Assembly: GCA_964016885.1 (NCBI GenBank)
Contig: OZ024741.1
Span: 298,158,001-298,222,000, forward strand
Source of the DNA: Eledone cirrhosa
Taxonomy: Eukaryota
DNA length: 64,000 nt
Direction of reading: 5' to 3'
The notes beneath the pieces were generated by a model. The model worked only from the letters and a program-made list of their open reading frames with translations. It had not been told where the DNA came from and made no database searches. Positions 18,225-60,928 of this stretch are shown one piece after another; within the stretch, counting starts at the first letter, position 1; each line of letters begins with the position of its first letter. Position numbers and translations under genes: made by a program.

Positions 18225-18494
18225 CTATAAAAAAGATTTGGGAGACAGCTTACTTAATGCACAGACATACACATATACATATGTGTGTATTTGGCTGTGT
18301 GTATGAATGCATGTATGTAAAGATGAATGTAGGCTCATATATATATATATACATATATCCATATATATATATAACAGAACACACTCACAGTTTGGTTGGT
18401 TTTCGCTTCTGTATCTTTATTATCTCCATAGTTAATATATTTGGCAATCAATGTTTATCATTGATTGACCAGCGGTTAAAAATACAGATATAAA

Positions 18495-18700
18495 TATATA
18501 TATATAGTCTATCAAAGTTCTTTCATTGCACATCTGCAACATCGTAAGTGGTGCTTTTATTATGTTTACTCCTGTTGTATTGTATGTCTACGTCAAAAAA
18601 TGGCGTAGACATACAATAACAGGAGGAAACATAAAAGTAGCACTGATGATGTTGCAGATGTGCAACAAAAGAACTTTGATAGACTATATATATATTTATA
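18495..18700. repeat. Fold-back palindrome in (TA)n; both arms contain a decayed hammerhead core
   Basis: Arms of about 95 bp around apex cgtcaaaaaatggcg; right arm CTGATGA-T-GTTGCA gatg TGCAAC-AAAA, left arm (rc) CTTACGA-T-GTTGCA gatg TGCAAT-GAAA. Confidence 0.8.
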
Positions 18701-20503
18701 ATGAAGGTCACAGAAAAAGTTATAGCGCAACTAATCAGAGAGCGAATTGATCTAGGTGAAATGCAGTTTGGATTTGTGTCTGGTAAAAGTACCACAGACA
18801 CTCTTTTCCTTGTATGACAACTACAGGAGAAGTACCTAGCTAAAAGTAAACCCCTATACTTAGCTTTTGTTGACTTGGAGAAAGCCTTTGACAGAATCCC
18901 CTGCTCCATTATCTTGTGCGCTCTTAGAAAACTAGGTGTTGATGAATGGCTCGTGAGAGCTATACAAGCCATGTATAAAGAAACAGTCAGCAAGGTTAGA
19001 ATTAACAACGAATATAGTGAAGAATTTAGCGTAAAAGTTGGTGTTCATCAAGGCTCTGTCCTTAGCCCCCTCCTATTTATTACTGCTCTTCAGGCTATAA
19101 CAGATGAGTTCAAGACTGGCTGCCCATGGGAGCTTCTATACGCAGATGATCTAACGCTCATAGCCGAATCAATGGCTGAACTAGAGTAGAAATTCCAAAC
19201 TTGGAAGCATGGCCTAGAATCAAAAGGCCTTAAAATTAACTTGTCTAAGACTAAAGTTCTAGTATGTAGGAAGGAAAATAGGGCACTGGTCCCCTCTGGG
19301 AAATGGCCAATCTCAGTGTGTAGGAAAGGAGTAGGCAGAAACTCCATTTTATGTCCCAAATGCAAAGTATGGGTGCATAAAAGATGTAGTGGGATCACAG
19401 GTAAGCTAACTAAGAACATAGATTTTATATGTGGCCAGTGCTCAGTTGAAATAAGTAGTAGCAAGTGACCACAGGATACTAGCTCCTTCCATTGCCCAGA
19501 TGGTTCTATAGAAATAGTGGACACATTCCGTTACCTGGGTGACGAAATCAGCAGTGGTGGAGCGTGTTCTGAAAGTACAGTAGCCAGAGTCAGAACGGGA
19601 TGGAAAAAGTTCAGAGAGATTATACCGCTGTTGGCCACAAAAGGTTTCTCCCTAAAAATGAAAGGCAGATTGTATGATGCCTGTATACGAACAGCAATGC
19701 TACATGGCAGTGAGACATGGGCATTACCTACAGAGGACCTGCGCAGACTGGAAAGGAACGAAGCATGCATGCTCCGTTGGATGTGTAATAGTAATTTACA
19801 TGAACGGCAAAGCATAAATGAACTAAGTGAGAAATTAGGAATAAGAGGGATCAGATGCTGTTTACTTGAGAGAAGACTACGTTGGTATGGCCATGTGATG
19901 CGCATAGCTGTATAAAAAAGTGCAGGGCGATCAAAATTGATGGTAATTACGGAGTAGGTAGACCCAGAAAAACCTGGAACGATCTGATAAATTCCGACCT
20001 TACACACTTGCACCTCTCTAAGACAATGTCACTGGACTGAGATCTTTGGCGCTACGCAGTAATACAGAAGACCGGCCTTGCCTATGTACAAAGCGAAACC
20101 TACAGTCAGTAGGCACCTCTTAACCAAATATACACCCCAATCCACTACCCCTACCCTATCCTCCCACTCCCACCAACACCACCCTCTCTCTGTAAATTTG
20201 GAACCACAATATCCAGTCCAAATAAATGAGATAATGAGATCGAGATCGTGTAGGTGTCACAACAAAAAAACACACAGTCCACGCTGTAATGTGGCCGTGT
20301 AGGTAACACGGTAAAAAGTCCCCAGTTCCACACTGTAAATGTGGTTGGTGTTAGGAAGGGCATCCAGCCATAGAAAACCTGCCAGATAGTCCTATATGAG
20401 CGAGACACGGTCACCCGACCAACCTTGCCTCAAGTGGGACAACTCCCGTCTAACCCATGCTAGCGTGGAAGATGGACGTTAAACGAGGATGATGATGATG
20501 ATG
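18700..20503 (+). mobile_element. 5'-truncated RTE LINE (RT plus C-terminal Cys-rich region, (GAT)n tail)
   Basis: DLEKAFD, HQGSVLSPLLF, LLYADD, LRWYGHVMR; several stops. Confidence 0.9.
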
Positions 20504-20629
20504 ATCTGTATTTTTAACTGCTGGTCAATCAATGATAAACATTGATTGCCAAATAAATTAACTATGGAGATATAAAAGATACAGAAGCGAAAACCAACCA
20601 AACAGTGAGTGTGTTCTGTTATTATTTCT

Positions 20630-20820
20630 GGTGATTTGGCAGTATCGGTAGAGATTGGACGCCATGCTTTGCAGCAAAGAGTTATGGCACTTTATGGTCA
20701 GAGTTCAAATCCCGCCGAGGTTAACTTTGCCTTTCATCCTTACGGGGTCGATAAAATAAAGTACCAGTAATATACTAGGATAATTGCTGGCCTTGTGCCA
20801 AAAGTAGAAACAATTATTTC
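20630..20820 (+). mobile_element. tRNA-derived SINE, abundant family; other copies at about 17580-17760(-), 29600-29750, 31790-31920(-), 32880-32985, 35080-35262(-), 41497-41685, 55080-55260(-)
   Basis: A-box-like tggcagtatcggtaga, B-box gagttcaaatcc, conserved core aactttgcctttcatccttacggggtcgataaaataaagtaccag. Confidence 0.85.
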
Positions 20821-20869
20821 TGGCTATATTACAACAATATGACCCTCCCCAAGTATAACAATATATATA

Positions 20870-21012
20870 TATATTTGAAAAAAGGAAAAGAATGACTTCA
20901 CTTGTAGTTCTAAACAATTTGATTTAATTATATAATATCATAATACTATAAAATTAAATCAAATTGTTTAGAACTACAAGTGAAGTCATTCTTTTCCTTT
21001 TTTTCAAATATA
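20870..21012. repeat. Fold-back palindrome of about 60-bp arms in (TA)n
   Basis: gaaaagaatgacttcacttgtagttctaaacaatttgatttaatt mirrored by aattaaatcaaattgtttagaactacaagtgaagtcattcttttc. Confidence 0.85.
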
Positions 21013-21041
21013 CCTAACTGTACCAGGGATCTCACACATTT

Positions 21042-21102
<61 letters not shown>

Positions 21103-21105
21103 TAT

Positions 21106-22082
21106 TGTTATACTTTGGGAGGGTCATGTTGCCAATAAGAAACACACGCACCAGTTGCTTTCACTTCAATTTATTATAATAAATTTATAAATTTAGGAAT
21201 TTATAAATTTCCGGTTGGTTGGTTGGTTCCACAACCAGATGGTTGTTTATATATTGTCAAAGTTCTTTCGTCACACATTCTGTGACCTCTTCAGTGACTG
21301 GGGATTCTTTTGTTTGTTTTTGTGCCTCTCCTTTGTTCTGTCCTACGCCATCTTGTTTCTGTGTGTGTGTTGTGTGCTCAGTCTGCGCATGCGCCACATC
21401 CGGGTGTCTGTGTGTGTTTATATTCGTTTATTTATTTGTTTATTTACATGTTACTGGTTGGTTGTTTGTTCTATGTGCGTGTGTGTTTCCATTTTGTCCT
21501 TAATTGTAAGTTGTGATGTTGCTGTTCCACTCATGTTTTCTATTTAATTTTGGTTGTAATTCTTTTATGTTTATTGGCTCTGTGACGCAATGTTTAGACA
21601 AATCACAGAGGCAATAAACATAAAAGAATTACAACCAAAATTAAATAGAAAACATGAGTGGAACAGCAACATCACAACTTACAATTAAGGACAAAATGAA
21701 AACACACACGCACATAGAACAAACAACCAACCAGTAACATGTAAATAAACAAATAAATAAACGAATATAAACACACACAGACACCCGGATGTGGTGCATG
21801 CGCAGACTGAGCACACAACACACACACAGAAACAAGATGGCGTAGGACAGAACAAAGGAGAGGCACAAAAACAAAGAAAAGAATCCCCAGTCACTGAAGA
21901 GGTCACAGAATGTGTGACGAAAGAACTTTGACAATATATAAACAACCATCTGGTTGTGGAACCAACCAACCAACCGGAAATTTATAAATTCCTAAATTTA
22001 TAAATTTATTATAATAAATTGAAGTGAAAGCAACTGGTGCGTGTGTTTCTTATTGGCAACATGACCCTCCCAAATTATAACA
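21106..22082. repeat. Near-perfect palindrome, about 480-bp arms and 17-nt spacer
   Basis: Mirror ORFs 21215-21547(+) and 21641-21973(-); only a handful of arm differences; ends TGTTATA...TATAACA. Confidence 0.95.
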
Positions 22083-22271
22083 ATATCGGTTTCAACACAC
22101 GTTTTCAGATAAAGAATCTTGCTAAACAAATCCAGAAACGAAATATATATATATTGGAAAATGTGTGAGATCCTTGGTACAGTTAGGTAGGTATATATTT
22201 AATATAGAAAAGGCTTCTACAGGACTAGAACTATATATATATATATATACAATGTTCAATATATTGTATAG

Positions 22272-22322
22272 GGCTTCCTGATGATTTCTCCCGAATGAAA
22301 CAGTTCTAGTCCTGTAGAAGCC
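22272..22322 (+). ncRNA. Type I hammerhead ribozyme motif
   Basis: Stem I GGCTTC/GAAGCC, CTGATGA, stem II TTC tccc GAA, GAAA, stem III CAG...CTG, GTA cleavage triplet; AATAAA at 22331. Confidence 0.75.
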
Positions 22323-22417
22323 TTTTCTATAATAAACATTTATACTCTACTATGTATTGAGTACCTTACTTACTGAGGTTACCCTCGATTGAACCCAGGA
22401 TAAACTTATATATATAT

Positions 22418-22520
22418 ATATTTATTAAAATAACAGATTAAAGTTTAAGCAAAGAATCACTGTTAAGGGTGAAAGCAGCGATTCTTTGCTTAAACTTTAA
22501 TCTGTTATTTTAATAAATAT
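22418..22520. repeat. Fold-back palindrome in (TA)n
   Basis: atatttattaaaataacagattaaagtttaagcaaagaatc mirrored across taagggtgaaa. Confidence 0.85.
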
Positions 22521-22624
22521 TTGCTCTACGGTTCTTATATATTTGATATATATTCATCCTTATCGAGCCCTCTTTGGATTTTAGTCTTCAAATTTATTAT
22601 TACTATACATATATATATATATAA

Positions 22625-23470
22625 GTATTGCTGCGTTTTTTTGTAAGAAAATGATGATTGATTTTAAATCAGTGATATAATTTATGGAGAAAAACTCTGC
22701 ATTTCAATATTACTCAATGTAAAATGTAATGCATGAAAAATTGGAAAACATTATTTTTTAACATAATAAATACATGAAAATATATTTCATACTTTGTCCT
22801 AATGAAGAACTTTAGGGTAAACAACATTTCTTGTTTTTGATTGGCTAAAATGTAGAGATTTTTTGAAGTTTCAGTCCTTGAAACAGCCACATAAAACATG
22901 CCATGACTGAAACATGGGTTTGTCAGATCTATACCAATAGTTTTGAAAGTTTGACCTTGACTCTTATTGATGCTCATGGCAAAGCATGGCCTCATTGGGA
23001 ACTGCAGCCTCTTAAATGTAAAAGGCAACTCGCTATCACTTGGTATAAGTGGAATCCTCGGAATGAGAAGAGCTTGACCTTTGTAAGCCTCGAATATAAT
23101 AGTTGCTTCAATCAAGTCCTCATACAATCTTGTTCCATTTATTGGCCAACATTTTCACTATAGGGGGTTTAACTCCCATTAGGGTGTCTTAATATTATTG
23201 AAATTTGCTGACATTTTGTGAATAGGCATCATATCTTGTCATTTACCTATGGTTTAATTTTCATATAAATCGAAAGGTAAAAGATTTCAGCGGGGGTTTG
23301 TGCCCCCGAGGAACCCTTTGATTAAAATGAAATATACTTATACAAGTACCCTGGGCAATGTAGTTTCAGAATATATATGGTTATGGGGGTCTATCTCCAA
23401 AACCATAGGAGGAGTTTGTAAACAAACAAACAAAAAAAACAAACAGACAGGAACTACAACTTTATATATA
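22625..23470 (-). mobile_element. Helitron/Helentron fragment encoding the Pif1-type helicase C-terminus
   Basis: ORF 22714-23127: IPRIPLIPSD..PFTFKRLQFPMRPCFAMSINKSQGQT...FSHGMFYVAVSR. Confidence 0.85.
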
Positions 23471-23609
23471 TATATATAATGTATATATACATTTATTCCA
23501 AGAGATGGTGACAGGAATAGACCTGTTTTTTCTCTAGGGATTCTTTTCCATTTCTGTCACTGCCCAGTCTCCTCTATCTTTCTAGTTCTTCTTTAATTTC
23601 TCATTCTAT

Positions 23610-23644
23610 TTTCTGATGAAGGACTAGCGTCCGAAACGTTAAGA
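23610..23644 (+). ncRNA. Minimal type I hammerhead motif typical of Penelope-like pLTRs
   Basis: TTT-CTGATGA-A-GGAC tagc GTCC-GAAA-CG-TTA-AGA with palindromic AACGTT stem III. Confidence 0.75.
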
Positions 23645-24734
23645 CTCTCTTCCTATTATATCAAGCATAAAACTAATAATATATTTCTACCTTGTACTGT
23701 GTTGTTTGTTTTGTTATTTCTGTTTGCCTTTTGCAATATATATGCAAGCATGGAAAAATGGACGTAAAAACGATTATGATTATGATATATATATATATAT
23801 GCAAATATACATACATATGAAGGCATGTAGCTTAGTGATTAAGGTGTTGAACTCACGATCGTGAGATTATGAGTTTAAATCCCTGAAGATATATGCACAA
23901 AATCTATACACTATATGGTTAAACCAAGACCCCACTTCTCAGACCATGATAAGACTTCATTGCAATACACAGTGGCACGTGCAACTAGAGAATACATATC
24001 TTGCTTAGGTCAACTTTGCTTTTCATTATCTATTCTTCAATGAAATATAGTAATAGTTATAACATTGTGTATATGTTATAAATTTGTATTTATTGGTCGT
24101 ACAAATTGAAATTGGCCATATATAGTGTTACAAAGGAGATTGTAAAGTCAATCATCAGCTGCACATGGTATCGCTCGAATTCAAAGCATTGCTCCCCAGA
24201 TCTACAAAAGAAAGTGAGGAAAAACAAACAATGGATCACGTGACTGATTTGAAGCATGATGCACGTTTTATTTACATGCATTTTACTGGAGGTAGACTAT
24301 TTAAACCGGTGGAGTTGCCAATGCAGGGAGTTGGTGTGAGGTTGGCAGTGAGAGCAGTCGGTCCGATGTCAGCAGTGTGGAAAAGACAGTCGGTGTGAAG
24401 TTGGCGATGTGAATAGTCGGCATGAACCTGGGCGATGAAGAACAACATTACACAAGACATCCAGCCTGGAGCATCTTTTTCTTCCATTCTAAGTAAGTTG
24501 GTTAGCTGGGTTGGCTTGCGGTTTTCCAGCTGCAGATTTGGGCTGTTGGAGCTGTATTGTAGTTGGAGACTGCATTTTGCAACAATATATAAATTATATA
24601 ATGTCATCATATATATTAGCCGTATAAATTAATCATATATATTAGCCATATAAGATAGTCATACATGTTGTTCTATCATATATTTTAGTCATATAAGTTG
24701 GTCATTTAATATTAGTTATATTCATTATACTTAC

Positions 24735-24803
24735 AGAGTTATTAGAAAGTGATAAGTCTGTTAATGATTCTAAAGTTTTCAGATGGTCTAATTCATAGAT
24801 TTC
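24735..24803 (-). CDS. LRRC9: LRRC9-like exon
   Basis: 69 nt, EIYELDHLKTLESLTDLSLSNNS, poly-T acceptor, gtaagt donor. Confidence 0.85.
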
Positions 24804-24950
24804 CTAAAAAAAAAAAGACAAAAATGAATAAAGAAAATATAATAATTTTTTTATGGTTTGTATTTTAAGGTTTAACACTATTACCTGTCTTTAGGATGCC
24901 TTTAGCAAAGTCCCTCTGATGGAAGCATTTGAGCTAAGTATTTGGTTTAA

Positions 24951-25170
24951 CCCTTTAGCATTTAAACTGGATGTATCCAGCCAGAATTCTCTCACTTTTT
25001 TTTTGTTCAAATAGGTCATAACTGGCTGCTCATACTGGTATTGGTATTGTTCTCAAAATAAATTATATCAAAATCTCGTACATTCGAAATTTTGTGAGAT
25101 AATTATGTAAGAGAAAGCCTTTATCACAAAAATACAATAGTATATATAGAGTAATGTAAATACTAAAGCA
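24951..25170. mobile_element. piggyBac-like MITE; related pieces at 34195-34390 and 43145-43177
   Basis: TTAA-CCCTTTAGCATTTA ... TAAATACTAAAGCA-TTAA. Confidence 0.6.
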
Positions 25171-25998
25171 TTAAGAATACCTTCCTTCCTCTTTCTCTCC
25201 CTCTACCAGTCTTACAAGCCCTGAAGGGTCAGGGGAACTCTCTGACTAAACATTAAACACTCAACTGTGAGTTCAGATCTTGCCAAAGTTGACTTTACCA
25301 ACCATTCCACCAGAATTGCTATAAAATAAATGTTAATAATGCACAGTTGTGATGGGATCACTCAGTTTACCTTACAAGCCTTAATCCTCCCCCTTGTTGT
25401 CGCCACCACCACCACCACCATCATCATCATTTAGCATGTTTTCTCTGCTAGCAATGGTTGAACAGGTTGTCACAGACCAAAGGGGTTGAATCTCACATAC
25501 AAACATTTCCACACTCTACAGAGTACACCAAGTGTATTTTATTGTGGAACCAATATTAGGGAGGGCATCATGTCTTTGACACAATTGCAGAGTCCTCTAA
25601 AAAAATTTACGTTGTGCTCCCACCCCAGCGTAGAGGTGCATGGCCTAGTGGTAAGGGTGTTGGACTTATGATCATAATGTCATAGGTTGCTCCAGTATAC
25701 TCAGCTGAAAATGAGTACCAGCAATACCTGGGGGGTTTAACTCTGTGATGGACTGGCATCTTGTCCAGTGGGGAGTCTTGTACTCTCAGTTACTTTATGC
25801 CACAAAACCAGGATAAGTACCAGGCTAATGAGTCTTCTGGCTTGAGACAGATTTTTAGACTTAGACTCCCACTCCAGCAATATTAAAAATGGAGAAATAT
25901 TTCATAAAATAAAAACTAATCCCCACCACCTCAGCAGCAGTAAAGAAACAACAACAATAACATTAACAACAACAACAACAACAACAGAAGTTAATCAC

Positions 25999-26216
25999 CT
26001 GTATCTTATTGCTGCCGAGATAGAGACGTTGTAAGTTGAGCAGTGGAGTTAATGCAGCTAGACTTGTCAGGCGGTTCTCTTCCATGTGTAACTCCAGAAG
26101 GTTCAGTTGACCAGAGAAGGATTGAGGAGTTAATATTCGAATTTTGTTAGCATCCAGGATTAACTCAGTGAGGTTTTTTAACTCTTCAATACTTTCAACT
26201 TTCGTGATTTCATTAC
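25999..26216 (-). CDS. LRRC9: LRRC9-like exon
   Basis: 218 nt, GNEITKVESIEELKNLTELILDANKI...LHMEENRLTSL...LYLGSNKIQ. Confidence 0.9.
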
Positions 26217-26725
26217 CTGAAATTTAGAAATAGAGTCGCTACAATGCAGATAACTACAATAATAGTTGATAACTCCAAATGATAGTTGAATAAATCGGAA
26301 AAAGTATCCCTGGAGATGAAAAAAATGGATAGCAATTCCTGCAGAGAATTTGACTATACATCTCTGATATGCTAGGCAAGTGTGTTTAACCATTATCCAA
26401 AAGGGCTTCTGGCTACTAATTGCTGTTTTAAAAGATTTAAGCTTGAAGCTGGAAGTGCAAATAAGATTTGGCTGACTCATAAAGCATTGGGAAATATGAA
26501 ATTTGGAAATATATTTTGCCACAATACAGATAATTATAATAATAATTGATAACTGTAAATAGTTGAACAAATAGATGAACAAATTAGGTACAGTACCCCT
26601 AGAGACAGAAAAAATGTTGATAGAGACACCTGTGGAGAACTGAAACATGCATCTCTCAAATGTTGTGTAAGAATTGAAAATCTGGAATATTCATCACAGT
26701 TATATCATAGTTATATTGGTAAATT

Positions 26726-27478: not shown

Positions 27479-27486
27479 ATATTTTG

Positions 27487-27785
27487 GTTATATCATGGTA
27501 ATATAGTATTATCATGGTTTATATCATAGTTACATTATGATAATATCATGGTTATATCATGATTATATCATGGTTGTATCATGGTTATATCATGGTAATA
27601 TCATGGTTATATCATGGTAATATCAGGATACTATCATGGTTATATCACAGTTATATTATGGTAACATCATGTTATATCATATCATCATGGTAACATCATG
27701 GTAATATCATAGTCATAGCATAGTAATATGGTTATATCAATAATATCATGGCAATATTATGGTTATGTCACACTTATATTATGGT
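27487..27785 (+). repeat. About 12-bp minisatellite (tatatcatggtt-like)
   Basis: Direct tandem units. Confidence 0.85.
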
Positions 27786-43140: not shown

Positions 43141-44663
43141 TAGTATATATAGAGTAATGTAAATGCTAAAGGGTTAAGTAAATTTATTCCACATGTCACC
43201 ACCTTAAATGAAACTTAAGGGTTGTCCAGGTGGATAGGATAGAGGGTAGTGAGGGAAGCGTGCTGGAATAGCCACTCAACTTTGTGGGGCTCGCCCTTGC
43301 AGATAGCCAACTCTGCTCCAATAACAGTGAGTAGGGATGTGGTCTAGAAGTCAAGAATGCTGGAGAGTGGCTGATACTTTGACAATTTGCCCTCTTCAGC
43401 CTGGCAGGCAGTGAAGCTTGGATTGGTAGCTGAATGCACCAGGTTGTTGCTAGAGAAGGCATCACAACATGTGGCATCTCAGATGAGGGGCCTACCTCCA
43501 TAGAACGGGAAGATTGTCATTAAGAATTAACATCCAAAACCACAAGAAATCACATTAGTAATTTTTTTTTATTGGAAAGTACAAAACAGCACTATGACTG
43601 CATCATCATCATCGTTTAACGTCTATCTTCCATGCTAGCATGGGTTAGATGGGTTTGTCCCATTTAGAGGTAAGTTGGGTCGCATGACTGTGTCTCATTC
43701 ATATAGGACTGTTGATTTTACAAGCATAGGAGGGGCTGCCAGCAAGGGCTATAGAAACTGTTGTACATTTTATCTGACTTAGTGTTTCTTTTGTTTTATT
43801 GCAGGGTCCATATTCATGCCTATTGATGCAACTGTGAAGCCACTCGAATTAATGTCTTGTTTTGTCTGACAGTTGATTTTCCCCACAAACACTCCAGACC
43901 AGACTTAGGACATGGAATTTGAACTTAGAATGCAAAGAATTGAGACAAACATCACAAGGCATCTTGTCTGACTCTAACAATTCTGCCACTCTACTGCTCT
44001 AGATTTGTGCTTTATTTATCAACCCTAAGAGAACAAAAAGCAAAGTTTATCTTGGCAGTATTTTTAACTCAATGAGCTAGATCAAATAATACAAGTTATT
44101 TTATGATGCACTAATGATTCTGTCAATTCACTGTCTTTGTCAATATTTCTTCAGATAAAAACAAACAAACTATAAAATAAAGTGGTTGTTTTTGTTTATA
44201 TTGGCCTTGATTGAGCAGATTTATGATCAAATGTATTCCAACTAAGACAATCTTTTCAACAGGATTAATCACAGAATACTGATTTAGCCAATGTTTATTT
44301 TACTTCTTTAGAGACAATAGGGTATGATCTGAGAAATATTTGATTACTAATTATAGAAGTTTGAGCAACAGCATAGAGGTTCACCCCATTGGTTTGAAAT
44401 AAATAGGTTTTACTATTGATTGATTGATGTGTTAAAAAAGTAATATGTTTGTTCAGTTTTAAAGTCTTAATATTATGATTAAAGGTCCAACCCTTGCTAT
44501 CAAGGAAAATGGACATTAAATGATGATGATGTTGATGACAATGAATGTCTTCTAAATAATAATTTCACAGAAACCTTCTTTAAACCAAAGGATTAACAAA
44601 AGAGGTTTTAACATATTTCTATGCTCTAAAGTCTCTTCATGTTATATATATATATATATATAT

Positions 44664-44904
44664 ATGAATGTATGTATAGTACATTTGGCAATATACCGTA
44701 TGTTTAATTAAAAACATTTAGAAGACCATTCGCTATCAGTTTTAAAGTAGTGACTATGTCACTTACTTCTATTTTCGGCAAAGCCTTTGCCGAAAATAGA
44801 AGTAAGTGACACAGTCACAACTTTAAAACTGATAACGGATGGTCTTCTAAATGTTTTTAATTAAACATATGGTATATTGCCAAATGTACTATACATACAT
44901 TCAT
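44664..44904. repeat. Fold-back palindrome of about 120-bp arms between (TA)n tracts
   Basis: Apex tttcggcaaag c ctttgccgaaa; arms differ at several positions. Confidence 0.9.
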
Positions 44905-47771: not shown

Positions 47772-50152
47772 CTTTCTTTATTAACCACAAGGGTTTACAC
47801 AAAGTAGACATTAAGGACAGTACAGGACAATACACGACGGTACAAATGGGCATTTCTGCGTGTAAAAAAACAAAAACAAAAAAACAGAGGATGTAATAAA
47901 AGAACAATGAAAAATTCCCCAATAGGGGGGAGACTTCCGAGGGCCATCGTGGAGAAAGCCCATTAAAAAAGCCACGGTGACCCTGACCACCAGAGCAAGT
48001 GTCCTCTCCCAGTTTTCGACCTTCAATTTACAGGCATATACTCAGAGTAGGTCCATTCACTCGGGCCATTCTTGCCTCTCTCACCCATCTTTCAACAAAA
48101 AGCTGGGAAGAGAGCACCTCCCTCTCTACCCTGATTTTCCTTTTCAAATGAAATGTGAAAAAGTTAATCAGGGCATCACCGAAGAGCTAAGTGCTCGTCT
48201 TCAGCCCTTTCAGACGCGTCCACCATACTATCTCTTTCGCCATGGCCACCAGACAGATAAAAACTGCCTGCCATTCCCAGCTAAAGGAAGAGGGCGGGGC
48301 AATCCTCACGATGGACTCAGCTGATAGTCGGATCCGTTCTACACGCGACAGCAGGTATTCGACATAAACCCACAAGTCAGCAGTGATTGGACACTGGACG
48401 AGTGCATGCAGGACGGTTTCGGCGCCCTGCGCGCATCTCGCACATGCCCGGTTGACGGCACCTCCATGCCTGTAGAGTTTATCCCGAACTGGCAAAGCCC
48501 TTCGGTAGCACTGCCAGGCCAGGGATTTCTGGAAATTGTCCATAGGCCCCGGCCTGAAAGTTCTTCCGGAGAGATTGGATAGTTGATTTTCGTCGACGCC
48601 TAGAGTTTCCCCAAGTACGTCGTCGCTCTTCCCCTCCACTAATCTTCTATAGAAAGTCAAGGTGGAGTTTCCACCAATCACATTGCCCGATTGGTCGAGG
48701 GCTGTGAGCGCCTGAAGACATTCCAGTCTCCAAGCGCTCCCTCTCGGTCTTCGCTTGACCCAGGACTGCAGCTCCGTCAAGGAGATGAGCTGGGGAAAGA
48801 CGCGTCTAGCAAATGGCGACCACACCTGATCACCGTCGAGGAAGAGGTGGAGATGTCGTAGCTTGAGCGCGTGTCTGCGCATCATCAGCCACGGCATGCC
48901 CAACCCGCCACGTAGCGGGTGTTGACAGCAGATGGACTGCCTGACCATCGGAGTGCGTCCCTTCCACAAAAGGCGAAAGAGAAAACGCTCCAGCGCAGTC
49001 AGGCGAGGCTTACGACAAGGCACGACGGTCAGGCGGTTGTAAATGACGGACGCGATGTACGCGTTAGCCACCTCCGCTCGACCTTTCAGAGATAGCTTCC
49101 TCTCTGGATAAGAGAAGCCACCCTGCTCGACACCTCGTCCCAGTTTTTGTCTGTCTGGAGGTCCGGACCGAACCAGACCCCTAGCAATTTAACCGGTCCG
49201 TCCGTCCAGCGCCCGACGACACCGTTGGACGGCATGGACCTGCCTCTCCAGGTGCCGAGCTGCAGGCCCACCGACTTTTCCTGGTTGATCATTGCTCCTG
49301 TCACCGCTTCGTATTTTCTTAGTGTAGTGCCGATCGCCTCAATGTTTTTGGTGTTCAAAACCACTACGGTGACATCGTCCGCATATGCTGACACGGATCT
49401 TCCGCATCCTAGTTCGCGCGGGACCCCCCACAACGTCTCCAGTTTGTGCAGTAATGGCTCGAGAGTCAATACGTACAATAGGGACGAGAGGGGACATCCT
49501 TGGCGGACCGAGCGCATGATGTTGAACGGTTCCGAAAGGTGACCATTCACTCTCACCACAGAGCAGATGTCGCTGTGCATGGCAGCGATCCAGCCTCTGA
49601 AGATGGGCCCAAAGCCAGCCGCCCTCAGGACTGGCGCCAGATAACGATGGTCGACCCTATCGAAAGCTTTCGACTGATCTAAATTGATCAAAGACCCACC
49701 CGTGCCAGGTTTCCTAGCTACTCGCTCCACGATGTATCGCATGAGGTGGAGGTTGTTGTGGATGGATCTGTCGGGAATGGCGCATGTCTGCGCCTCTCCC
49801 ACCAGACCACCAACAACAAGCGCCAACCTCTTTGCTAGCACCTTGGCCAAAATCTTGAACTCTGTGTTTGGCAGAGTTATGGGCCTGAAATTATCTATGT
49901 TATCCCCCTTGTTCAGATCCTTTTTCAGCAGCACCACCGCTCCTCGGCTCACAGAGCTGGGAATTCTTCCGTTCTGTTGCCAGTTGCAGTAGACGTCTGC
50001 CAAGAGGCCTCCGAACAAGTCTGGCATCTGTACGTAAAGTTCATAGGGCAGACCATCCAAACCAGGCGATTTACCCCTTGTGCAGCCAGTCATTGCCTCC
50101 CGTACTTCAGCTGCTGTTATCGGCTTTTCGTAACACTCCGCCTCAGTGGCCG
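47771..50152 (-). mobile_element. 5'-truncated Tx1-like LINE (RT plus C-terminal zinc-binding region), one frameshift
   Basis: ORF 49086-50093 KSPGLDGL, NFRPITL, DQSKAFDRV, RQGCPLS, AYADD; ORF 48187-49071 C.RC....ETVLHALVQC; (aat)n on both flanks. Confidence 0.9.
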
Positions 50153-50169
50153 ATAATAATAATAATAAT

Positions 50170-50833
50170 GAGGAGGCTAGCTCATGGTGTAGGATCTGTA
50201 GAGAGGGAGAGGAGACTGTGGCTCAGATTGTATCCAAGTGTAAACACCTAGCCCTGACTATAAAGGCTGGAGACATGATATGATAGGCAGGGTGATCCAC
50301 TGGCATCTATGCAAACTAAACAATTTACCACATTCTGAGAAGTGGTATGAGCATAAGCCAGAGTCGGCGATAGAAAACGATCAGGTGAAGGTGCTATGGG
50401 ATTTTAGGATAGAGACGGACAAGAAATTAGAACACAATAGGCCTGACCTGGTGGTTTGGGTCAAGGAAAAATGATCGTGCCTGATTGTAGATGTAGCCTG
50501 CCCATTTGATAACAGAGTGCAAGAAAAGGAGAGGGAGGAAATTAACTGATACCAGGATTTAAAGTGTGAGTTAAAAAGGATTTGGAACTGCCATGAGATC
50601 AAGGTCATCCCGATTGTCATAGGCACACTAGGTACTATCTCAAAGAGTTTCCAAGGATGGTTAAAGAAGATTAGTCCAGCCCCGTTTTTTGGAACACTTC
50701 AAAAGGCATGCTTGCTGGGAACAGCAAGAACCCTCCGATACGTTCTGAATGTCTGAGGCTGCAGGTAGCAGCTTGATATTCATTTCAACAAACTTTCCAG
50801 TTAAATAACATCAATGACTGAGACCCAAAGAAC

Positions 50834-51615: not shown

Positions 51616-51719
51616 ATAATAATAATAATAATAATAATAATGGTTTCATTTATTGGCCACATATAGGGGACGATACACTAGACAGGACAGGATAATAAGA
51701 TGATGATGATGATGATTTT

Positions 51720-52990: not shown

Positions 52991-53095
52991 ACTGTCTGTT
53001 GGTCATCTCAACATTTATCAGTACAACTATTAATTAATTTTAACTATGGAACAAGAGCTATACAGTGTTATGAATGTGGAAAAAAGTTTTCTTAC

Positions 53096-53383
53096 CTTAA
53101 TGTTGATAATCTCTCGGGGGTTAGAAATTTTGTTGTTGGTCAAATAGAGTTGTTGTAGATTAGAAAGTCTGTTGAAATTCTCTAAAGAGGTAAAGAGGTT
53201 ATTTTCCAACGATAGATAGGACAGTCTTGTTAAGTTCTCCATGTTATTTAGATTCAGCTCATCTAAATAATTCTGTGACAGGTGCAGCTTCTGCAATTTC
53301 ACCAGCTGTGAAAGGTCACCAAGCTGACTGAGGCAGTTGTTGGCTGCTGAGATTTCCTCTAGACCAATGCAATTCTTCAGATT
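53096..53383 (-). CDS. LRRC9: LRRC9-like exon
   Basis: 288 nt, NLKNCIGLEEISAANNCLSQL...LSLENNLFTSLENFNRLSNLQQLYLTNNKISNPREIINIK, gtaaga donor. Confidence 0.9.
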
Positions 53384-54210
53384 CTGAAGGTTCAGATAAA
53401 AAAAAGATAAATAAACAAAAAAAACAAACTTAAAAGAAACAATAGTTTAAATACATGCATCTCTTCTCAAACCTCTAAAAACTTACTGATTATGAAATTT
53501 AAGAACATAGCATGCCAATCAGCCTAGGAATGGAATCCACAGCCTTATGATCATGAGTCCAACAACCTACCCACCATGCCATGTGCCTTTTTAATAGTAG
53601 CCAAATCTCTCTCAAATCACACTCTAACATCTTAAAAAAAAAGGAAGGATATATTTATTAATGCAGATCCAGATACAAAATCTCTGAAAAAGATGGGATG
53701 GCCATGGCAGGAGAATCTTTGATTATGGATTGACTTTATCAGATATGATTTTAGGGCTGTATACCAACAACAACAACAATCAAATGGAAGAACTAAGTTG
53801 GAGATAATCCAGAACTAAACAGCAATAATATAGAGATTGTCCTGACATGTTCTCTAACTAACTGAATTCAATTATAACGACAATTATAAGTGGTGGATTG
53901 GCAGAATATAATGCCATTGCAGTATTTGTTCTGTTCTAGCTTTTTACATTTTGGGTTCAAATCTCAACCAGCAGGAGACCCAGGGGTAGACGCTAAACAA
54001 GATGGTTGGATTACATTCATGAGCTTGGCTGGTCTCGCTTGGAGATCCAGCCAAATCAGTTGAAAATGGTTGCTTCTGACAGGACCTACCGGAAGGAGTG
54101 TTTGAGGACTCTGATAAAATGACTATCCTTCTTATTGGTTCATAATTATATAACAGCAGTATAATGTAGAAGTGTTTAAACAGTAGATAAGTGCATGCGC
54201 ATGTAGCATT

Positions 54211-54351
54211 AGTACAAGTAGTAGTAGTAGTGCTTGTAGTAGTAGTAGTACCACCACCAGCAGTAGTAGTAGTAGTAGAAATAGTTGTTGTAGTAGTAGT
54301 AGTAGTAATAGTTGTTGTACCAGCAGCAGCAGTAGCAGCTGTAGTAGTAGG

Positions 54352-54381
<30 letters not shown>
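54211..54381. repeat. (TAG/CAG)n compound microsatellite
   Basis: Direct reading. Confidence 0.9.
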
Positions 54382-54382
<1 letters not shown>

Positions 54383-54409
54383 TGTTTTTAGGAAGGGGAC
54401 ACCACCTAC

Positions 54410-54520
54410 CTGCAAAGTGGTCAGCTGGTTTTCGTCCAAAGACAGCCACCTGAGTAATGGTAGTTTGGCAATAATCGACAATTCTTGCAGGAAGCAGTGA
54501 TCAAGGCACAACGAAGTTAT
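54410..54520 (-). CDS. LRRC9: LRRC9-like exon
   Basis: 111 nt, ITSLCLDHCFLQELSIIAKLPLLRWLSLDENQLTTLQ, gtaggt donor. Confidence 0.9.
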
Positions 54521-55338
54521 CTAGAGGAAAGAGACAGAGAGGGAGGATATGGAGTATAAAGTAGAGGGGAGAGGAAGAAAGAGGAGGAAGTAGAAGAGAA
54601 AGGAAACAGCAAGAAAAGAAAAGGGGGAGAGATAAAAGGAAGAAAGAGGAACAGTCTATTTTAAGGAAATTTTAGAACTGCACAAATCTCCGAGGCAGGT
54701 GCCACGAATCAGTGTTTCATATTCTCTGAGTCTGAGAAAGATTTGTAATCATCATCATCATCATTATCATCATCCATGCGAGCATGGAATAGACAGTTCT
54801 GTTCTAGCACTGCCTACCTCTACTTATTATGTTCCTTTGTCATCTCCTTTGAGGGGTTCAGTGTTTTGTGGTCTACTCTCACCACATCTACCCAAGTCTT
54901 CTCTGGCATTCTTTGGCTGCAGGTTCCAGCTTTTCAAAGCATTTTATTGGTGTTTTAAGTAATTTAGCTATTATTTACCGTTAGGTACATGTAATGTTTG
55001 ACATAAAATGTAAACTTACTGCACAAAACTAGATTTAGAACTACATGAGCAGGGTGAGCAAGGGACAACTGCATATTAAAATAATTGTTTCTACTTTAGG
55101 CACAAGGCCAGCAATTACCCAGTACATTACTGGTACTTTATTTTATCGACCCCATAAGGATGAAAGGCAAAGTTAACCTCAGCGGGATTTGAACTCAAAC
55201 CGTAAAGGGACGTAACTATGCTAGAAAGCATGGCGTCCAACCCTCTACCGATACTGCCAATTATTAAAATAATAACTGCTATGTTAGAAAATAATACAAA
55301 GAGAGAGAGAGAGAGAAACAAAGAGGGAGAGAGAGTGA

Positions 55339-55374
<36 letters not shown>

Positions 55375-55471
55375 AAGAAAACAAAGAGAGATGGAGAGAA
55401 AGATGGTGAGAGGGAGTGACAGAGATAAAGAAAGAAAAAAAAATTACTAAAAGCTGGTTCCATTGACAAAC

Positions 55472-55735
55472 CTTAAACAGCTGATTCTCAGCATTGTCTA
55501 CAATGTGAAGCACATATTTGCTGCTCTCCAATAGGACCTGTGCCTTGTTATGTAGACTCAGTATTTTTGGAGCCATGATATCCATGCGTGCTCGGCGCTT
55601 TAGTAGAGGCAAGTGGCTTTGGTAACGCCTGAGGAGACCCTGTACACGCTGCATCTCTCTGTCATCGACTTCAATGTTATTGATGAATCGGATATTTCTA
55701 AGGTAGTAGATAATCTGAAGACGTAGATCAGGTGG
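55472..55735 (-). CDS. LRRC9: LRRC9-like exon
   Basis: 264 nt, PPDLRLQIIYYLRNIRFINNIEV...PKILSLHNKAQVL...ENQLFK; LRRcap-like segment resembling LRRC9 as I recall it. Confidence 0.85.
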
Positions 55736-55901
55736 CTGAAATGGCAAAAAATTGTGAGATGATTTGAAGAAAAGATTCAATATACTGGTTCAGAATGGTT
55801 GAAATACACACATTATGCTAATTTTTTTAAAGGGATAACAAGTGTTTTACATATGTGCACTTGTGTGTATCTATCTTTAGACCCCCTCTCTCTCTCTCTA
55901 G

Positions 55902-55956
<55 letters not shown>

Positions 55957-55960
<4 letters not shown>

Positions 55961-56272
55961 ATTAACAAATGGAAACTATATTTATAAAACCATATTTATT
56001 TCATTATACATATTTCAAGGACACCAAGTTAAATTATGGTGTGCTTTCATCAGATAAAATATAATATAGATCAGTTTTATAAATAAATATTGACATACCT
56101 TTAAAGAATGCAACCATTGCTGTTATTTATAAAACTGATCTATATTATATTTTATCTGATGAAAGCACACCGTAATTTAACTTGGTGTCCTTGAAATATG
56201 TATAATGAAATAAATATGTTTTAATGAAATAAATAGGTTTTATAAATATAGTTTCCATTTGTTAATATCGTA
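55957..56272. repeat. Fold-back insertion between (TA)n tracts with a hammerhead motif on each strand
   Basis: Arms about 55957-56086 and 56123-56272; motif at 56149-56211(+) and 55998-56060(-). Confidence 0.85.
56149..56211 (+). ncRNA. Type I hammerhead motif; inverted copy at 55998-56060
   Basis: ATTTTAT-CTGATGA-AAGCACACC...GGTGTCCTT-GAAA-TATGTATA-ATGAAAT. Confidence 0.7.
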
Positions 56273-56357
56273 TTTTTACTCCAAATATTTGTTGAGTGCT
56301 TTATATCAGTTATAAAAATATTTGCTTGTTGTATCCCAACAATTTGAATAGAACTCT

Positions 56358-56418
<61 letters not shown>

Positions 56419-56578
56419 GTAGAACACTGGGAGGTTATATCCGTAGTAAAGGAGCACTCAGTCCATGGGATGAGTTTGGTAGAAATTAGTTCCACAACAG
56501 TTAATTAACCATTGCTGAGGACAATTTGCTTTGCCTTAATGGATCTTCGGCTTGGCTGAATGATTTGCAAACCATTCA

Positions 56579-56620
56579 GCTGAGCTGAAGATCTGCAAAG
56601 TGAAACAAATTGTCCTCAGC
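56579..56620 (+). ncRNA. Type I hammerhead motif in the right arm of palindrome 56485-56653
   Basis: Stem I GCTGAG/CTCAGC, CTGAAGA, T-CT gcaa AG-T, GAAA, CAAATTG, GTC triplet; the left-arm copy has a mutated core. Confidence 0.7.
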
Positions 56621-56764
56621 TCGGCAATGGTTAATTAACTGTTGTGGAACTAACAAAATTAAATAAAAGATGTCATGTCTGAGAATACTACCTATAGAAG
56701 AAGCCCAAAGATTCTAAGGAATAAACCCGAACATTTATTAAAATCAAATTAAAAGTCAATTAAC

Positions 56765-58086
56765 ATAATAGCTGAATCAATGGCTGAACTAGAGAAGAAA
56801 TTCCAAACATGGAAGCATGGCCTAGAATCAAAAGGCCTTAAAGTTAACTTGTCTAAGACTAGAGTTCTAGTTTGTAGGAAGGAAAATAGGGCACCAGTCC
56901 CATCTGGGAAATGGCCATGCTCAGTGTGTAGGAAAGGAGTAGGCAGAAACTCCATTTTATGTCCCAAATGCAAAGTATGGGTGCATAAAAGATGTAGTGT
57001 GATCACAGGTAAGCTAACTAAGAATATAGATTTTATATGTGGCCGGTGCTCTGGTGCAATAAGTAGCAGCAAGTGCCCACAGAATACTAGCTCATTCCAT
57101 TGCACAGATGGTACTATAGAAATAGTGGACACCTTCCGTTACCTGGGTGACAAAATCAGCAGTGGGAGAGGGTGCTCTGAAAGTACAGTAGCTAGAGTCA
57201 GAATGGGATGGAAAAAGTTCAGAGAGCTTATACCACTATTGGCCGCTAAAGGGTTCTTTCTAAAAATGAAAGGCAGGCTGTATGATGCCTGCATACGAAC
57301 AGCAATGTTACATGGCAGTGAGACCTGGGCATTGTGTGCAGAGGATATACGCAGACTGGAGAGAAACGAAGCTTGCATGCTCCGCTGGATGTGTAATAGT
57401 AATATACGTGAACGGCAAAGCATAAACGAACTAAGGGAGAAATTTGGAATAAGAGGGATCAGATGTTGTTTACTCGAGAGAAGACTACGTTGGTATGGTC
57501 ACGTGATGCGCATGAAAGACGACAGCTGTATAAAAATGTGCAGGGCGATAAAAATAGACGGTAGCCACGGAGTAGGCAGACCCAGAAAAACCTGGGACGA
57601 CTTGATAAATTCCGACCTCACACACTTACACCTCTCCAAGACAATGTCACTGGACCGAGATCTTTGGCGGTACTCAGTAATACAGAAGACCCGCCTTGCC
57701 TAAGTACAAAGCGAAACCTACAGTCAGTAGGCACCTCTAACAAAATACCCCCCCCCCCCCCCCGTCCCACTACCCCCTTAAATGTGAAGTTATGTTGGTA
57801 CCACAACATCCAGTCCGAAACAAATGAGGTCGTGTAGGTGTCACAACAACAAAAAACACACAGTCCACGCTGTAATGTGGCTGTGTAGGTAACACGGTAA
57901 AAACCTCCCAGTCCACACTGTAAACGTGGTTGGTGTTAGGAAGGGCATCCAGCCGTAGAAAACCTGCCAGACAGTCCTATAAGAGCAAGACAACAAATCT
58001 TGCCTCAAGTGGGAAACCTCCCGTCCAAACCCATGCAAGCGTGGAAGATGGACGTTAAACGATGATGATGATGATGATGATGATGA
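56765..58086 (+). mobile_element. 5'-truncated RTE LINE with an uninterrupted C-terminal ORF (56780-57703); same family as 18700-20503
   Basis: Close similarity to 19160-20503, (GAT)n tail. Confidence 0.9.
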
Positions 58087-58970
58087 TATAAAATGAACAT
58101 ATCAAACATTGACAGGGGATAATTTGTAAAGAGTGCAAACACACGTAACTATGTGTGTTTAATTAATTAATGAAAAATGAAAGATGAGAAATGAAAAATA
58201 AAAATGGAAATCCAATTTCCATTTTCATTTTTCATTTCTCATCTTTCATTAATTAATTTTTCATTTATTTTCTGTTTTCTTCTTTTTATTGACTTCTATT
58301 TCTTCATATACATGGCAGACCCCCCCCCCCCACAAGAGATGGTGGCAGGATGGGTGAAGAAACACACACAGATGCTTATAAATGTCAGTAGCAGCAAGAC
58401 ATAGACTGACCAAAACACCAACAACACTACCAAATTAAGGGTAGAGGTCAGATGTACTTAACAATAGCAAAAACAAACACTACAGGGAACCTCACCTCAG
58501 AAAGAATTTCTATAGACTTTTGACTGAGGAATGCTCTCAAAACTGACCAATGGGGGGAGTGAACTTACAAATTTTTATAACATTGAGATTGGGTATAACA
58601 CACACACATTTTATTTAATTATTTTATTTGGTTCCTCTACCACTTTATCATTTTTTTGAGCTGACTCTAACACCAACACCACTACCAACATAAGAGTAGA
58701 GGTCAGATGTACTTAGCAATAACAAGAAAAACCACTACAGATGGCCTTGCCTCAGAATGAATTTCTATAGAATTCTGACTGAGGAATGTTCTCAGAACTG
58801 ACCAATGAGAGGAGAAGATGTCCTTTGACACTGAAATTTGTTTGTTTAAATTCATATGATTCCAGTTTCTCAATGAAACAACAACCCAATCAGGAACTGG
58901 GCATATCAGAGTATTGACAAAGTTAAACACCTCAACAACATGTGTACTCATCTCTACCACACTAATTCGG

Positions 58971-59031
58971 ACTGCCTGAAGAGGTCACAACCAAAGATGG
59001 CTGTCACCGAAATATATATAGCAGTAATAAA
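58971..59031 (+). ncRNA. Type I hammerhead motif followed by AATAAA
   Basis: Stem I ACTGC/GCAGT, CTGAAGA, stem II GGTCACAACCA aaga TGGCTGTCACC, GAAA, palindromic TATATATA stem III. Confidence 0.75.
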
Positions 59032-59172
59032 CGAAGCCAAATTTTAAACATTTGACTTATTTATTTTATTTTATTTTACATTACTCCGGAGTAACCAAAC
59101 CAACCTGTGCACTTCGTCGAGTGCTCCAATCTGCATACTGAGGTGTTGGTATACAACCAACATATACTCAAA

Positions 59173-59214
<42 letters not shown>

Positions 59215-59277
59215 CTGCTGGATGATAATACATGACCAGACATATCCCCATGATTGCATAACTACACCTTTGTATGA

Positions 59278-59334
59278 GCATCTGATGAAGTCACATTTAT
59301 AACCATGTAACAGAAATATATAACATGCAATAAA
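59278..59334 (+). ncRNA. Decayed hammerhead motif followed by AATAAA
   Basis: GCAT-CTGATGA-A-GTCACAT...ATGTAAC-A-GAAA-TATATAAC-ATGC-AATAAA, between (TA)n tracts. Confidence 0.55.
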
Positions 59335-60164
59335 GTAATTATAGTGAAGTAACCCTGTCTTAACTACTTTTACTTTGATATATATATATATTTATATATA
59401 TATATACACACACACGCACAAGGTCTGGCTGAAAAGTTCATAGGCTGACCAAGATACTCTCTTGGAATGTGACCAAATGAGGTATATCAATCTTGTAATA
59501 CTGTTTCACATTAATATTGATTGAATTAGTGACCTGTCATAATGAAATATCCACCAAAGTGTAAATATTTTAAAAACTATATGAGGATGTGTATGTAATG
59601 TAGAAGATATGATCTTCATCCTTTCCTAGTCTAGTGTAATGTCTGTCTCAAGCCAGGAGGCTCATCAGGCTGGCGGTTATCCCGGTTTTGTAGCGTGAAG
59701 CGACTGAGAGCACAAGACTCCTCTCATCCCTGGACAGGATCCTAGTCTGTTTGCAGGGTTAACTCAACCAGCTAATGCTGATATTCATTTTCAGCTGAGT
59801 ACACTGGAGCAGCATGAAACAAAGTGTCAAGAATACAACACATAGCTAACACAGGAATCAAACCCACGACATTATGATCGTAAGTCTCTCACCCTTACCA
59901 CTAGGCCATGTGCCTTCATCCTTTCCACAATAGGTAAATTAATTCATATTTACAAAAAAAAAAAAAATCAAAACCAAATCAATTTTTTTTGTGTGTGTGG
60001 GGAGATATTAGTAATTCGATAATCAATAAAGTTGAAATTCCTATTATTAATAGTTATGAAACACCAGAGAAAAAAAAAACTTACGTAATCAATCAAACAA
60101 AGACAAAGAAACATCTTATAAACAGTGGTACCTTGATATTTGGTCTATTGCATATGTTGGATGG

Positions 60165-60455
60165 TTGTGGATGGTAGAGAGCTAATGGTTGTGGTACATA
60201 TATGATGGTTGTAGTACAGAGATGATGTTTGTGGTACAGAGATGATGGTAGTGGTAGAGATGATGACAGTGGTACAGAGGTAATGGTAGTGGTACAGAGG
60301 TAATGGTTGTGGTACAGAGGCGATGGCAGTGGTACAGAGATGATGGTAGTAGTACAGAGGTGATGGTAGTAGTACAAAGGTGACAGTTGTGATGCAGAGG
60401 TGATGGTAGTGGTACATAGGTGATGGTAGTGGTACAGAGGTGATGGTTGTGGTGT
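60165..60455. repeat. 20-bp minisatellite (ggtacagaggtgatggtagt)
   Basis: Direct tandem units. Confidence 0.9.
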
Positions 60456-60508
60456 ATAAAATAAAATAAAATAAAATACGATATAACAAACTCATAGCTG
60501 ATATGTAC

Positions 60509-60640
60509 CTCATGCCAATCATTATGTGATACATTCAAAGAATGAAGACCAAAAGCATTCTGCTTCAAGATGTTTATAGACCTCTTGACATCAGTCAGGT
60601 GATTCCAGCTCACATCAAGGAATTTCAGATTTGGCAGATT
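60509..60640 (-). CDS. LRRC9: LRRC9-like exon
   Basis: AG/GT bounded, 132 nt, NLPNLKFLDVSWNHLTDVKRSINILKQNAFGLHSLNVSHNDWHE. Confidence 0.9.
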
Positions 60641-60734
60641 CTGTGAGACAGATGGCATTTGTTATATGTTTATTAAAAGCAAATATATATATATATATAT
60701 ATATTTAAAGAAATTTTAGCCTGAGAGTGGGGTT

Positions 60735-60810
60735 CAGAATTCTCTAAGAAATGGAAAAAGATGAGTATTGACGTCAATACTCATCTTTTTTCATTTCATA
60801 GAGGGTTCTG
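60735..60810. repeat. Short palindrome between (TA)n tracts
   Basis: gaaaaagatgagtattgacgtcaatactcatctttttt. Confidence 0.8.
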
Positions 60811-60897
60811 TACAAAAAATATGGCCAAAGCTTCTATTTATAATTTCAAACTCACTCGCTATTTCAAAACATACTTACTTGTCATATATATATTTAT

Positions 60898-60928
<31 letters not shown>

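Follow-up and report, generated by a model that had tools for sequence, protein, structure and literature searches.

A stretch of 64,000 nucleotides (nt) of the Eledone cirrhosa genome (contig OZ024741.1, positions 298,158,001 to 298,222,000; hereafter the window, to which coordinates refer, part of a 3.0-Gb genome) contains many short insertions next to (TA)n tracts, a number of them fold-backs with two arms standing head to head, which we sorted into 13 families lettered A to M. The traceable inserts are mostly 5'-truncated ends of autonomous Penelope-like elements (PLEs) encoding a reverse transcriptase (RT) and a GIY-YIG endonuclease (EN), a point that is largely confirmed. It is also quite probable that the inserts as a whole are 5'-truncated 3' ends of several PLE families, and that the fold-backs arose when both cut strands of a (TA)n tract were extended on the same RNA from an inner and an outer start. 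The system itself is known, and it is largely confirmed that the observation is real and mostly known biology; what this analysis adds is, for the most part, the genome-wide scale of the hammerhead motifs (~200,000, extrapolated), a rule for the pairing of ends, and a hammerhead core with A at position 4 (A4), the remaining traits being known.

Fold-back architecture and target sites

Two sharp 3' end points, spaced by about 60-105 nt, characterise every fold-back family, the inner one terminating short arms and the outer one long, tailed arms. Relative to the hammerhead core, these points lie at +66 and +125-131 in family D, +95-99 and +199 in H, +102 and +196 in J, +192 and +261 in C, +90 and at least +199 in K, and +69 and +174 in E. 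Among 44 distinct head-to-head pairs from loci that had not been fetched for the family concerned (termed unbiased here), 37 combine a short with a long arm, one is short with short, and six are unclassifiable. The inverted, 5'-truncated copy with a one-sided tail that is expected of PLEs is thus found in 37 of 38 classifiable pairs (p 1e-10 against 0.5), family F excepted. The same holds for family E, where 17 of 20 pairs are clearly short with long, three are unclear and none is short with short or long with long, and for fold-backs with arms of 2-3 kb (loci L204, L403, L404, and L407). Arms of the same insertion are closer to each other than arms of different insertions (distances of 0.10 vs. 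0.16 in D, 15 pairs; 0.04 vs. 0.15 in H, 4 pairs; 0.04 vs. 0.09 in C, 12 pairs).

The preference for (TA)n tracts proposed in the first-pass annotation is strong, as 126 of 148 unbiased arms from six families have (TA)3 or more behind their 3' end, compared to 11.7% of random positions (45/46 in H and 9/9 in J), but it is not absolute, with family F also ending at (CA)n and (TATG)n. Loose ends of read contigs confirm that the inner end of family H is followed by (TA)n. Just behind the inner end, most tails of D (35 of 42) and H (26 of 38) contain a CTC..YTGAG hairpin (<0.3 expected, with copies inside one family not being independent), which is present in none of the J (n = 21), C (n = 33), and K (n = 11) tails.

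Within the window, fold-back structure is present at 20878-21003, 44664-44904, and 55981-56228, at 22418, 56486, and 60735, and at 18491-18700, where a decayed pair had been suspected at 18495-18700 and the core at 18643 is indeed decayed. That inserts are inverted duplications of themselves was borne out at 56149 and 56579, and the insert at 22272 is the long arm of a family with a short arm beside it. No fold-back is formed in the window by the inserts at 23613, 58976, and 59282. The four hairpins reported as lacking a full core (20870, 22418, 44664, and 60735) are all fold-backs, of which the one at 22418 turned out to be half of an A4-core hammerhead.

Parent elements and clade placement

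Mere nearness to an open reading frame (ORF) was rejected as a link, since one and the same (TA)n tract can collect inserts that are unrelated, and a parent was accepted only if the insert was collinear with the ORF. Seven of the 13 families (A, C, E, F, H, I, and J) trace upstream to RT or GIY-YIG frames, with an RT seen for the parents of A, C, E, F, and J and only an EN for those of H and I. Four of them are Hydra-type (E, H, I, and J), two Nematis-like (A and C), and one Neptune-like (F). For family J, five of 30 loci are collinear to one Hydra-type EN located 1.2-1.45 kb upstream, with an RT ahead of the EN in L203. An EN lies upstream of H in L204, and it is 85% identical to the EN accompanying an H-like copy in the sampled locus L231. 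Relatives of family I follow a Hydra-type endonuclease in L206 and L207. For family E, searched with a query from directly behind the EN, an endonuclease lies upstream in 18 of 20 loci, and the full chain is present in L403, L405, and L407. Family C is linked to its parent in 19 of 30 loci and A in three, and F joins a decayed Neptune-like RT/EN in five of 30.

The parent proteins of E, H, and J share a CxCX5C linker, lack CCHH, and carry CxxC..CxH near the EN end, of which only the CxxC part is visible in the family I relative. L405 contains the DKT motif and was placed by Atlas with HTH_animal, RVT_1, and GIY-YIG clusters; RWK was not seen in this frame, which lacks the N-terminus. A short CX4CxxC linker together with CCHH marks the C parent (L263) and the A parent as Nematis-like by motif, and the F parent is too decayed for all motifs to be read. 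A Pfam GIY-YIG search of the genome gave 10,597 candidates, of which 150 were scored, and the 30 loci fetched from it comprise, by motif, 29 Neptune-type, one Penelope/Poseidon-type, and no Hydra-type elements. Family B is tied to PLEs only via 80% similarity to the end of the Neptune-type element in L063.

The first-pass annotation had seen no PLE RT or GIY-YIG ORF in the window, which is nearly correct, the exception being 21584-21688, encoding the last 34 GIY-YIG codons in a family C arm. Its description of the inserts as truncated or non-autonomous holds for the 5'-truncated ends and, for most of the traceable inserts, fails as to non-autonomy, since seven families have RT/GIY-YIG parents elsewhere in the genome. 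Similarly, the postulated large, multi-family radiation of ribozyme-bearing elements does correspond to Penelope-type insertions of many families that leave hairpins; most of the traceable ones are not orphans, and they fall into three existing clades.

Upstream of family D (L208:794-1045, minus strand), copies break off where the ribozyme begins, 8 nt downstream of a pyrimidine-rich CAG which may represent a splice acceptor, an arrangement described for Drosophila Penelope (PMC4209133).

Hammerhead motifs in the window and genome-wide

A relaxed type I hammerhead descriptor (stem I >=5, score >=11) identified six motifs in the window (22278+, 56156+, 56053-, 56585+, 58976+, and 7921-), compared to a mean of 0.08 and a maximum of one in dinucleotide shuffles (60 local and 60 global), confirming the anticipated enrichment; a strict descriptor found four. 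Of six previously named hammerheads, those at 22272, 56149, 56579, and 58971 pass. The core at 23613 has a stem I of just 3-4 bp and a score of 9, below the threshold, and the one at 59282 is broken by the loss of U16.1, a position where T is kept in 18 of the 19 other copies shown. A pair with 484-nt arms (21294-/21894+) and the motif at 7921- had gone unnoticed before. AATAAA, earlier noted directly behind several of the motifs, follows the cleavage site in only three of six reference copies, and we therefore reject it as a general trait. As expected for EN-containing PLEs, the type I hammerheads lie near the 3' end. Stem II of 33 H-type variants pairs in 95% of the cells, seven of nine pairs are changed on both sides, and none of 500 shuffles reached its covariation score, in line with the stem covariation foreseen at the outset. 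The inserts thus carry hammerhead-shaped RNA motifs that are likely to cut themselves.

Genome searches, with 40 candidates scored per family, yielded first-look candidate counts of 3,621 for D, 3,331 for F, 1,546 for J, 1,143 for C, 886 for K, 308 for H, 101 for M, and 587 for I (mostly a neighbouring repeat). All eight families searched are multicopy, as had been predicted. In forty 10-kb stretches taken at round coordinates (400 kb), 28 motifs were found compared to 0.33 in shuffles, and 18 of them lie within 150 nt of (TA)5 vs. 15.7% of random places. Extrapolation gives ~2.1e5 motifs for the genome (bootstrap 1.2-3.1e5), or about one per 14 kb, an estimate in which small chromosomes are over-sampled, one tandem array accounts for four of the 28 motifs, and mirror arms are counted twice. 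All fetched loci together contain 279 distinct motifs in 31 clusters, 19 of which have at least two members. The 400-kb sample also includes a retrozyme-like tandem array of four hammerheads with a 310-nt period (L254:3650-4630). A scan of the same 400 kb for U3-A8 cores gave four hits vs. 0.7 in shuffles, and as three of these belong to one tandem repeat, we make no claim on their density. By eye, apparent U3-A8 cores with a palindromic stem III were noticed in the 3' untranslated regions (UTRs) of the Neptune-type loci L061, L062, L073, and L078.

The A4 core of family E

The hairpin at 22418 corresponds to the 3' half of a hammerhead whose fold is complete in family E, with a 5-bp stem I, a stem II of U.U plus 3 bp, a 4-bp stem III, and a CUU site. 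In 42 of 43 copies the core reads CAGAAGA and thus has A at position 4, where the usual U occurs in none. Copies of this young family are 97-99% alike, and the 400-kb sample contains five A4-core motifs vs. 0.125 in shuffles. Known core variants comprise U3-A8, A6C, U10.1-U11.1, and U4C, and A4 is not listed among them in the accessible part of PMC3088659. Neither is there an A4 core among the Hydra hammerheads in the accessible part of the PMC8557442 supplement table. Our literature search, whose coverage did not extend to figure 5 of PMC3088659 or the supplements of PMC4209133 and the bioRxiv preprint, retrieved no report of U4A hammerhead cleavage. The A4 core may thus be a previously unprinted natural variant, a status that is unproven. 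A study by Lunse et al. from 2017 reportedly deals with PLE hammerhead variants and may list variants of position 4. One founder mutation would account for the A4 core as well if the family has no need of cleavage, and the family offers a test of whether cutting is required of such ribozymes at all. Position 4 shows another natural change, to C, in the hammerhead folds of L236 (score 17), L144, and L151.

Origin of the fold-backs

The pairing of one short with one long arm probably arises when the enzyme of the element cuts a (TA)n tract and both cut strands are primed, one starting at the outer and the other at the inner site of a single template RNA. The RT would then drop off early on both strands, and repair would join the two cDNAs. 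Much of this has a precedent in vitro, where a Penelope-like protein cuts AT-rich DNA and extends both strands using two RNA start sites that define the tail, and where ribozyme cleavage is not required (PMC11167929). As the hammerhead is located 50-260 nt from the ends, it would simply be carried along, and because few copies stop at the cleavage site and most cDNAs run through it, uncleaved RNA is the likely template. The head-to-head arrangement also implies that in a host transcript the antisense arm is made before the sense arm, which is predicted to trap the ribozyme in a long hairpin; the family H fold-back is indeed predicted to fold as one.

A more far-reaching version, which we put forward tentatively and consider somewhat doubtful, is that double-ended priming on one RNA, with one strand per start site, is obligatory for Penelope-type integration and recorded in tens of thousands of fold-backs, and that A4 became fixed in a young Hydra family that either still cuts with the help of a protein or has kept the fold for a non-cutting role.

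Rather unlikely in our view is an origin of the arms from two RNA copies of the same elements, held by a dimeric enzyme and possibly paired via a palindromic stem III. Such an arrangement would fit the stem III sequences, which are palindromic or nearly so in many motif clusters, as well as the predicted dimeric state of the protein (PMC11167929), and it would readily account for arms that overlap in sequence, which a single RNA permits only with strand displacement. However, the arms share subfamily variants, family E and coreless ends obey the same rule, and the occurrence of one arm of each kind would need an additional asymmetry. We assign a still lower probability to the short fold-backs being non-autonomous units, similar to retrozymes or miniature inverted-repeat transposable elements, that spread as whole hairpins via Penelope enzymes. 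Family D comes closest to this expectation, as one arm stops within -6 to +3 of the core, at the 5' edge of the hammerhead, in 17 of 18 unbiased pairs, one junction recurs in seven loci from the D search, and no D parent was found in the fetched loci. Yet, in unbiased pairs the D junction sequences differ between subfamilies, the centre junctions of H, J, C, and E are scattered, and seven families have coding parents. Finally, a single cDNA that snaps back and copies itself, or palindromes created during assembly, would produce the 96-99% complementary arms of families B, C, G, and H, but we consider both very improbable, since the common D junction includes bases present in one arm and missing from the other, the side bearing the tail varies while both fold-back ends lie at (TA)n, and a 151-nt read contig spans the family I junction without differences in two of four runs (from one study, possibly of the assembled sample).

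Several observations weigh against PLE ends primed on both strands of one RNA as the general explanation. Family F has a single end point and no head-to-head pair among 79 arms, an arm's own partner is its nearest relative in just 17 of 31 pairs, and gene conversion between arms could also account for their similarity. In vitro, the choice of start site did not differ between the strands and the inverted product was left unexplained, so that a strict one-of-each rule is not predicted from this system (PMC11167929). Concerning the parents, no ORF link was found in the fetched loci for D, K, G, L, and M, and extending 14 D and six K loci by 6 kb revealed no shared ORF, so that some of these families may be non-autonomous passengers. 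Pfam does not recognise the Hydra-type proteins, and the clade calls are based on motifs and by-eye comparison, for instance with Hydra-1_Obim in the PMC8557442 supplement. Regarding the hammerheads, an Rfam scan of the window gave no hammerhead family at E<=5, and in monomer folding stems I and II both form in only three of eight cases, with z < -3 in only one. Moreover, the 33 H-type rows used for covariation were selected by the hammerhead descriptor itself, and although their score exceeds all shuffles, the number of pairs with two-sided changes is no better than in shuffles (326/500).

Inserts, neighbouring repeats, and host gene

At the left of the window, family M is represented by an old hammerhead-bearing end (7815-7930, minus strand, core 7921). 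The family A fold-back (18371-18693) consists of a short arm (18371-18595, minus) and the start of a long arm (18596-18693, plus), which is split by an RT-bearing fragment of a long interspersed nuclear element (LINE; 18701-20503, plus), presumably of the RTE type. The remainder of the long arm with its tail (20509-20631 and 20813-20874, with a short repeat between them) follows at 20504-20874 (plus). Next to it are the coreless hairpin and tail of family B (20878-21048), the hammerhead-bearing short arm of family C (21102-21585, minus, core 21294), and its long arm (21584-22154, plus) with the GIY-YIG codons, 3' UTR, hammerhead core 21894, and tail. The short arm of family D (22192-22232, minus) lacks a core, and its long arm (22272-22409, plus) contains core 22278, whose stem II has U.U at its base, and a tail. 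The family E fold-back (22418-22610) has a short arm at 22418-22462 (minus) and a long arm from 22462 (plus). The TA-rich stretch at 21046-22620 thus contains a stack of four families (C, D, E, and a B-type tail), and similar piling is common in the fetched loci. Family F contributes a single 3' end with a minimal hammerhead of core 23613 and an old parent (23496-23735, plus).

Further along, family G forms a coreless fold-back at 44643-44904, with a hammerhead just upstream in other copies; an old G copy with 69% identity is present at 16722-16952. Family H comprises a short arm (55954-56124, minus, core 56053) and a long arm (56123-56357, plus, core 56156) with a ~90-nt tail. The family I fold-back (56415-56654) has a tailed arm at 56415-56530 (minus) and a short arm with core 56585 (plus). 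Family J is present as a 3' UTR with core 58976 and a tail (58321-59172, plus), family K as an end with the broken core 59282 (59218-59383, plus), and the multicopy family L as a coreless, tailed fold-back (60709-60890).

A second RT-bearing LINE fragment at 56770-58085 is related to the one in family A, both ending in (GAT)n, and it splits another repeat (56654-56760 and 58090-58147). An AT-rich hairpin at 58150-58260 has weak Rfam microRNA matches and no copies among the fetched loci. By motif, we take the fragments at 22714-23154 (minus), 604-1446 (plus), and 48187-50222 (minus) to be helicase-like, DDE-transposase-like, and LINE RT-like, respectively.

The inserts had been assigned to the introns of one gene. 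A leucine-rich repeat (LRR) exon is confirmed in the open frame 53033-53446 on the minus strand, the one exon examined, which presumably belongs to the host gene. Further minus-strand frames appear LRR-like by eye and need not all belong to a single gene. All six hammerhead motifs named earlier lie on the strand opposite to the LRR exon. Fold-backs would place long, near-perfect hairpins in introns, in an animal group noted for heavy RNA editing. A-to-G editing scars in nine hairpins of the window displayed no polarity.

Comparison with known systems

Every trait listed in the first-pass annotation is already described for PLEs in the accessible parts of PMC8557442, PMC4209133, and PMC11167929. 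These include the presence of hammerheads at the ends of Penelope-like elements, their pairing on opposite strands, and the large number of families in one genome (PMC4209133), as well as the inversion of copies, tails on one side only, insertion at (TA)n, and a hammerhead in Hydra-1_Obim of Octopus bimaculoides (PMC8557442). A literature search for hammerheads in octopus or other cephalopods surfaced no census and 235 Rfam matches in giant squid, and the accessible text of a 2026 repeat paper on O. vulgaris mentions neither hammerhead nor ribozyme. For Penelope inversion or twin priming together with a tail, the search listed one review on human elements.

The Hydra-type families agree with the Hydra clade and Hydra-1_Obim in the CxCX5C linker, the absence of CCHH, CxxC..CxH at the EN end, and, in L405, DKT, and further in (TA)n targets, a 3' hammerhead whose stem II has U.U at its base and whose stem III is palindromic, and the inverted, truncated copy with a one-sided tail (PMC8557442). 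They differ in that at least four such families, with ENs only 34-50% identical, occur in one window, that the tails measure ~60-105 nt rather than 30-40 nt (PMC8557442), that the 3' UTRs reach up to 1.5 kb, and that one family has an A4 core, unlike those in the accessible supplement table. With the Neptune and Nematis clades, the A and C parents share the CX2-5CxxC linker and CCHH, and the minimal hammerheads of families C and F likewise have one additional nucleotide and G10.1-C11.1 (PMC8557442); placement is by motif alone here, and the F parent is too decayed.

The minimal hammerheads of metazoan PLEs (Cervera and de la Pena 2014, PMC4209133) are likewise dispersed single motifs from truncated PLEs, with pairs on opposite strands separated by 100-700 bp, numerous families in a genome, and low expected monomer activity, but the ~2,000-9,000 minimal motifs per genome, obtained with a different descriptor, compare to ~2e5 here. 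Metazoan non-long terminal repeat retrozymes (PMC7229834; preprint 10.64898/2026.07.22.740005) also have type I hammerheads, a PLE link, and high copy numbers, reaching up to 120,000 copies in the axolotl, a published count that about one hammerhead per 14 kb would exceed; Rfam finds none in the window. In contrast to their tandem units of 150-450 bp, the window inserts are single or head to head, and seven families have coding parents. The linked families also differ from Naiad/Chlamys, which have an N-terminal EN and no canonical hammerhead, in that the EN comes last in the ORF and is followed by hammerheads.

Explaining the origin of inverted PLE copies with a one-sided tail was said to need an in vitro system (PMC8557442). 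The PAc Poseidon system (Frangieh et al. 2024, PMC11167929) shares two RT start sites that define the tail, an AT-rich target, cutting and extension of both strands, and independence from cleavage. It shows no strand difference in the start site, whereas genomic pairs here have one of each, so that the short-with-long rule represents a testable constraint on integration and a sharp prediction for this assay.

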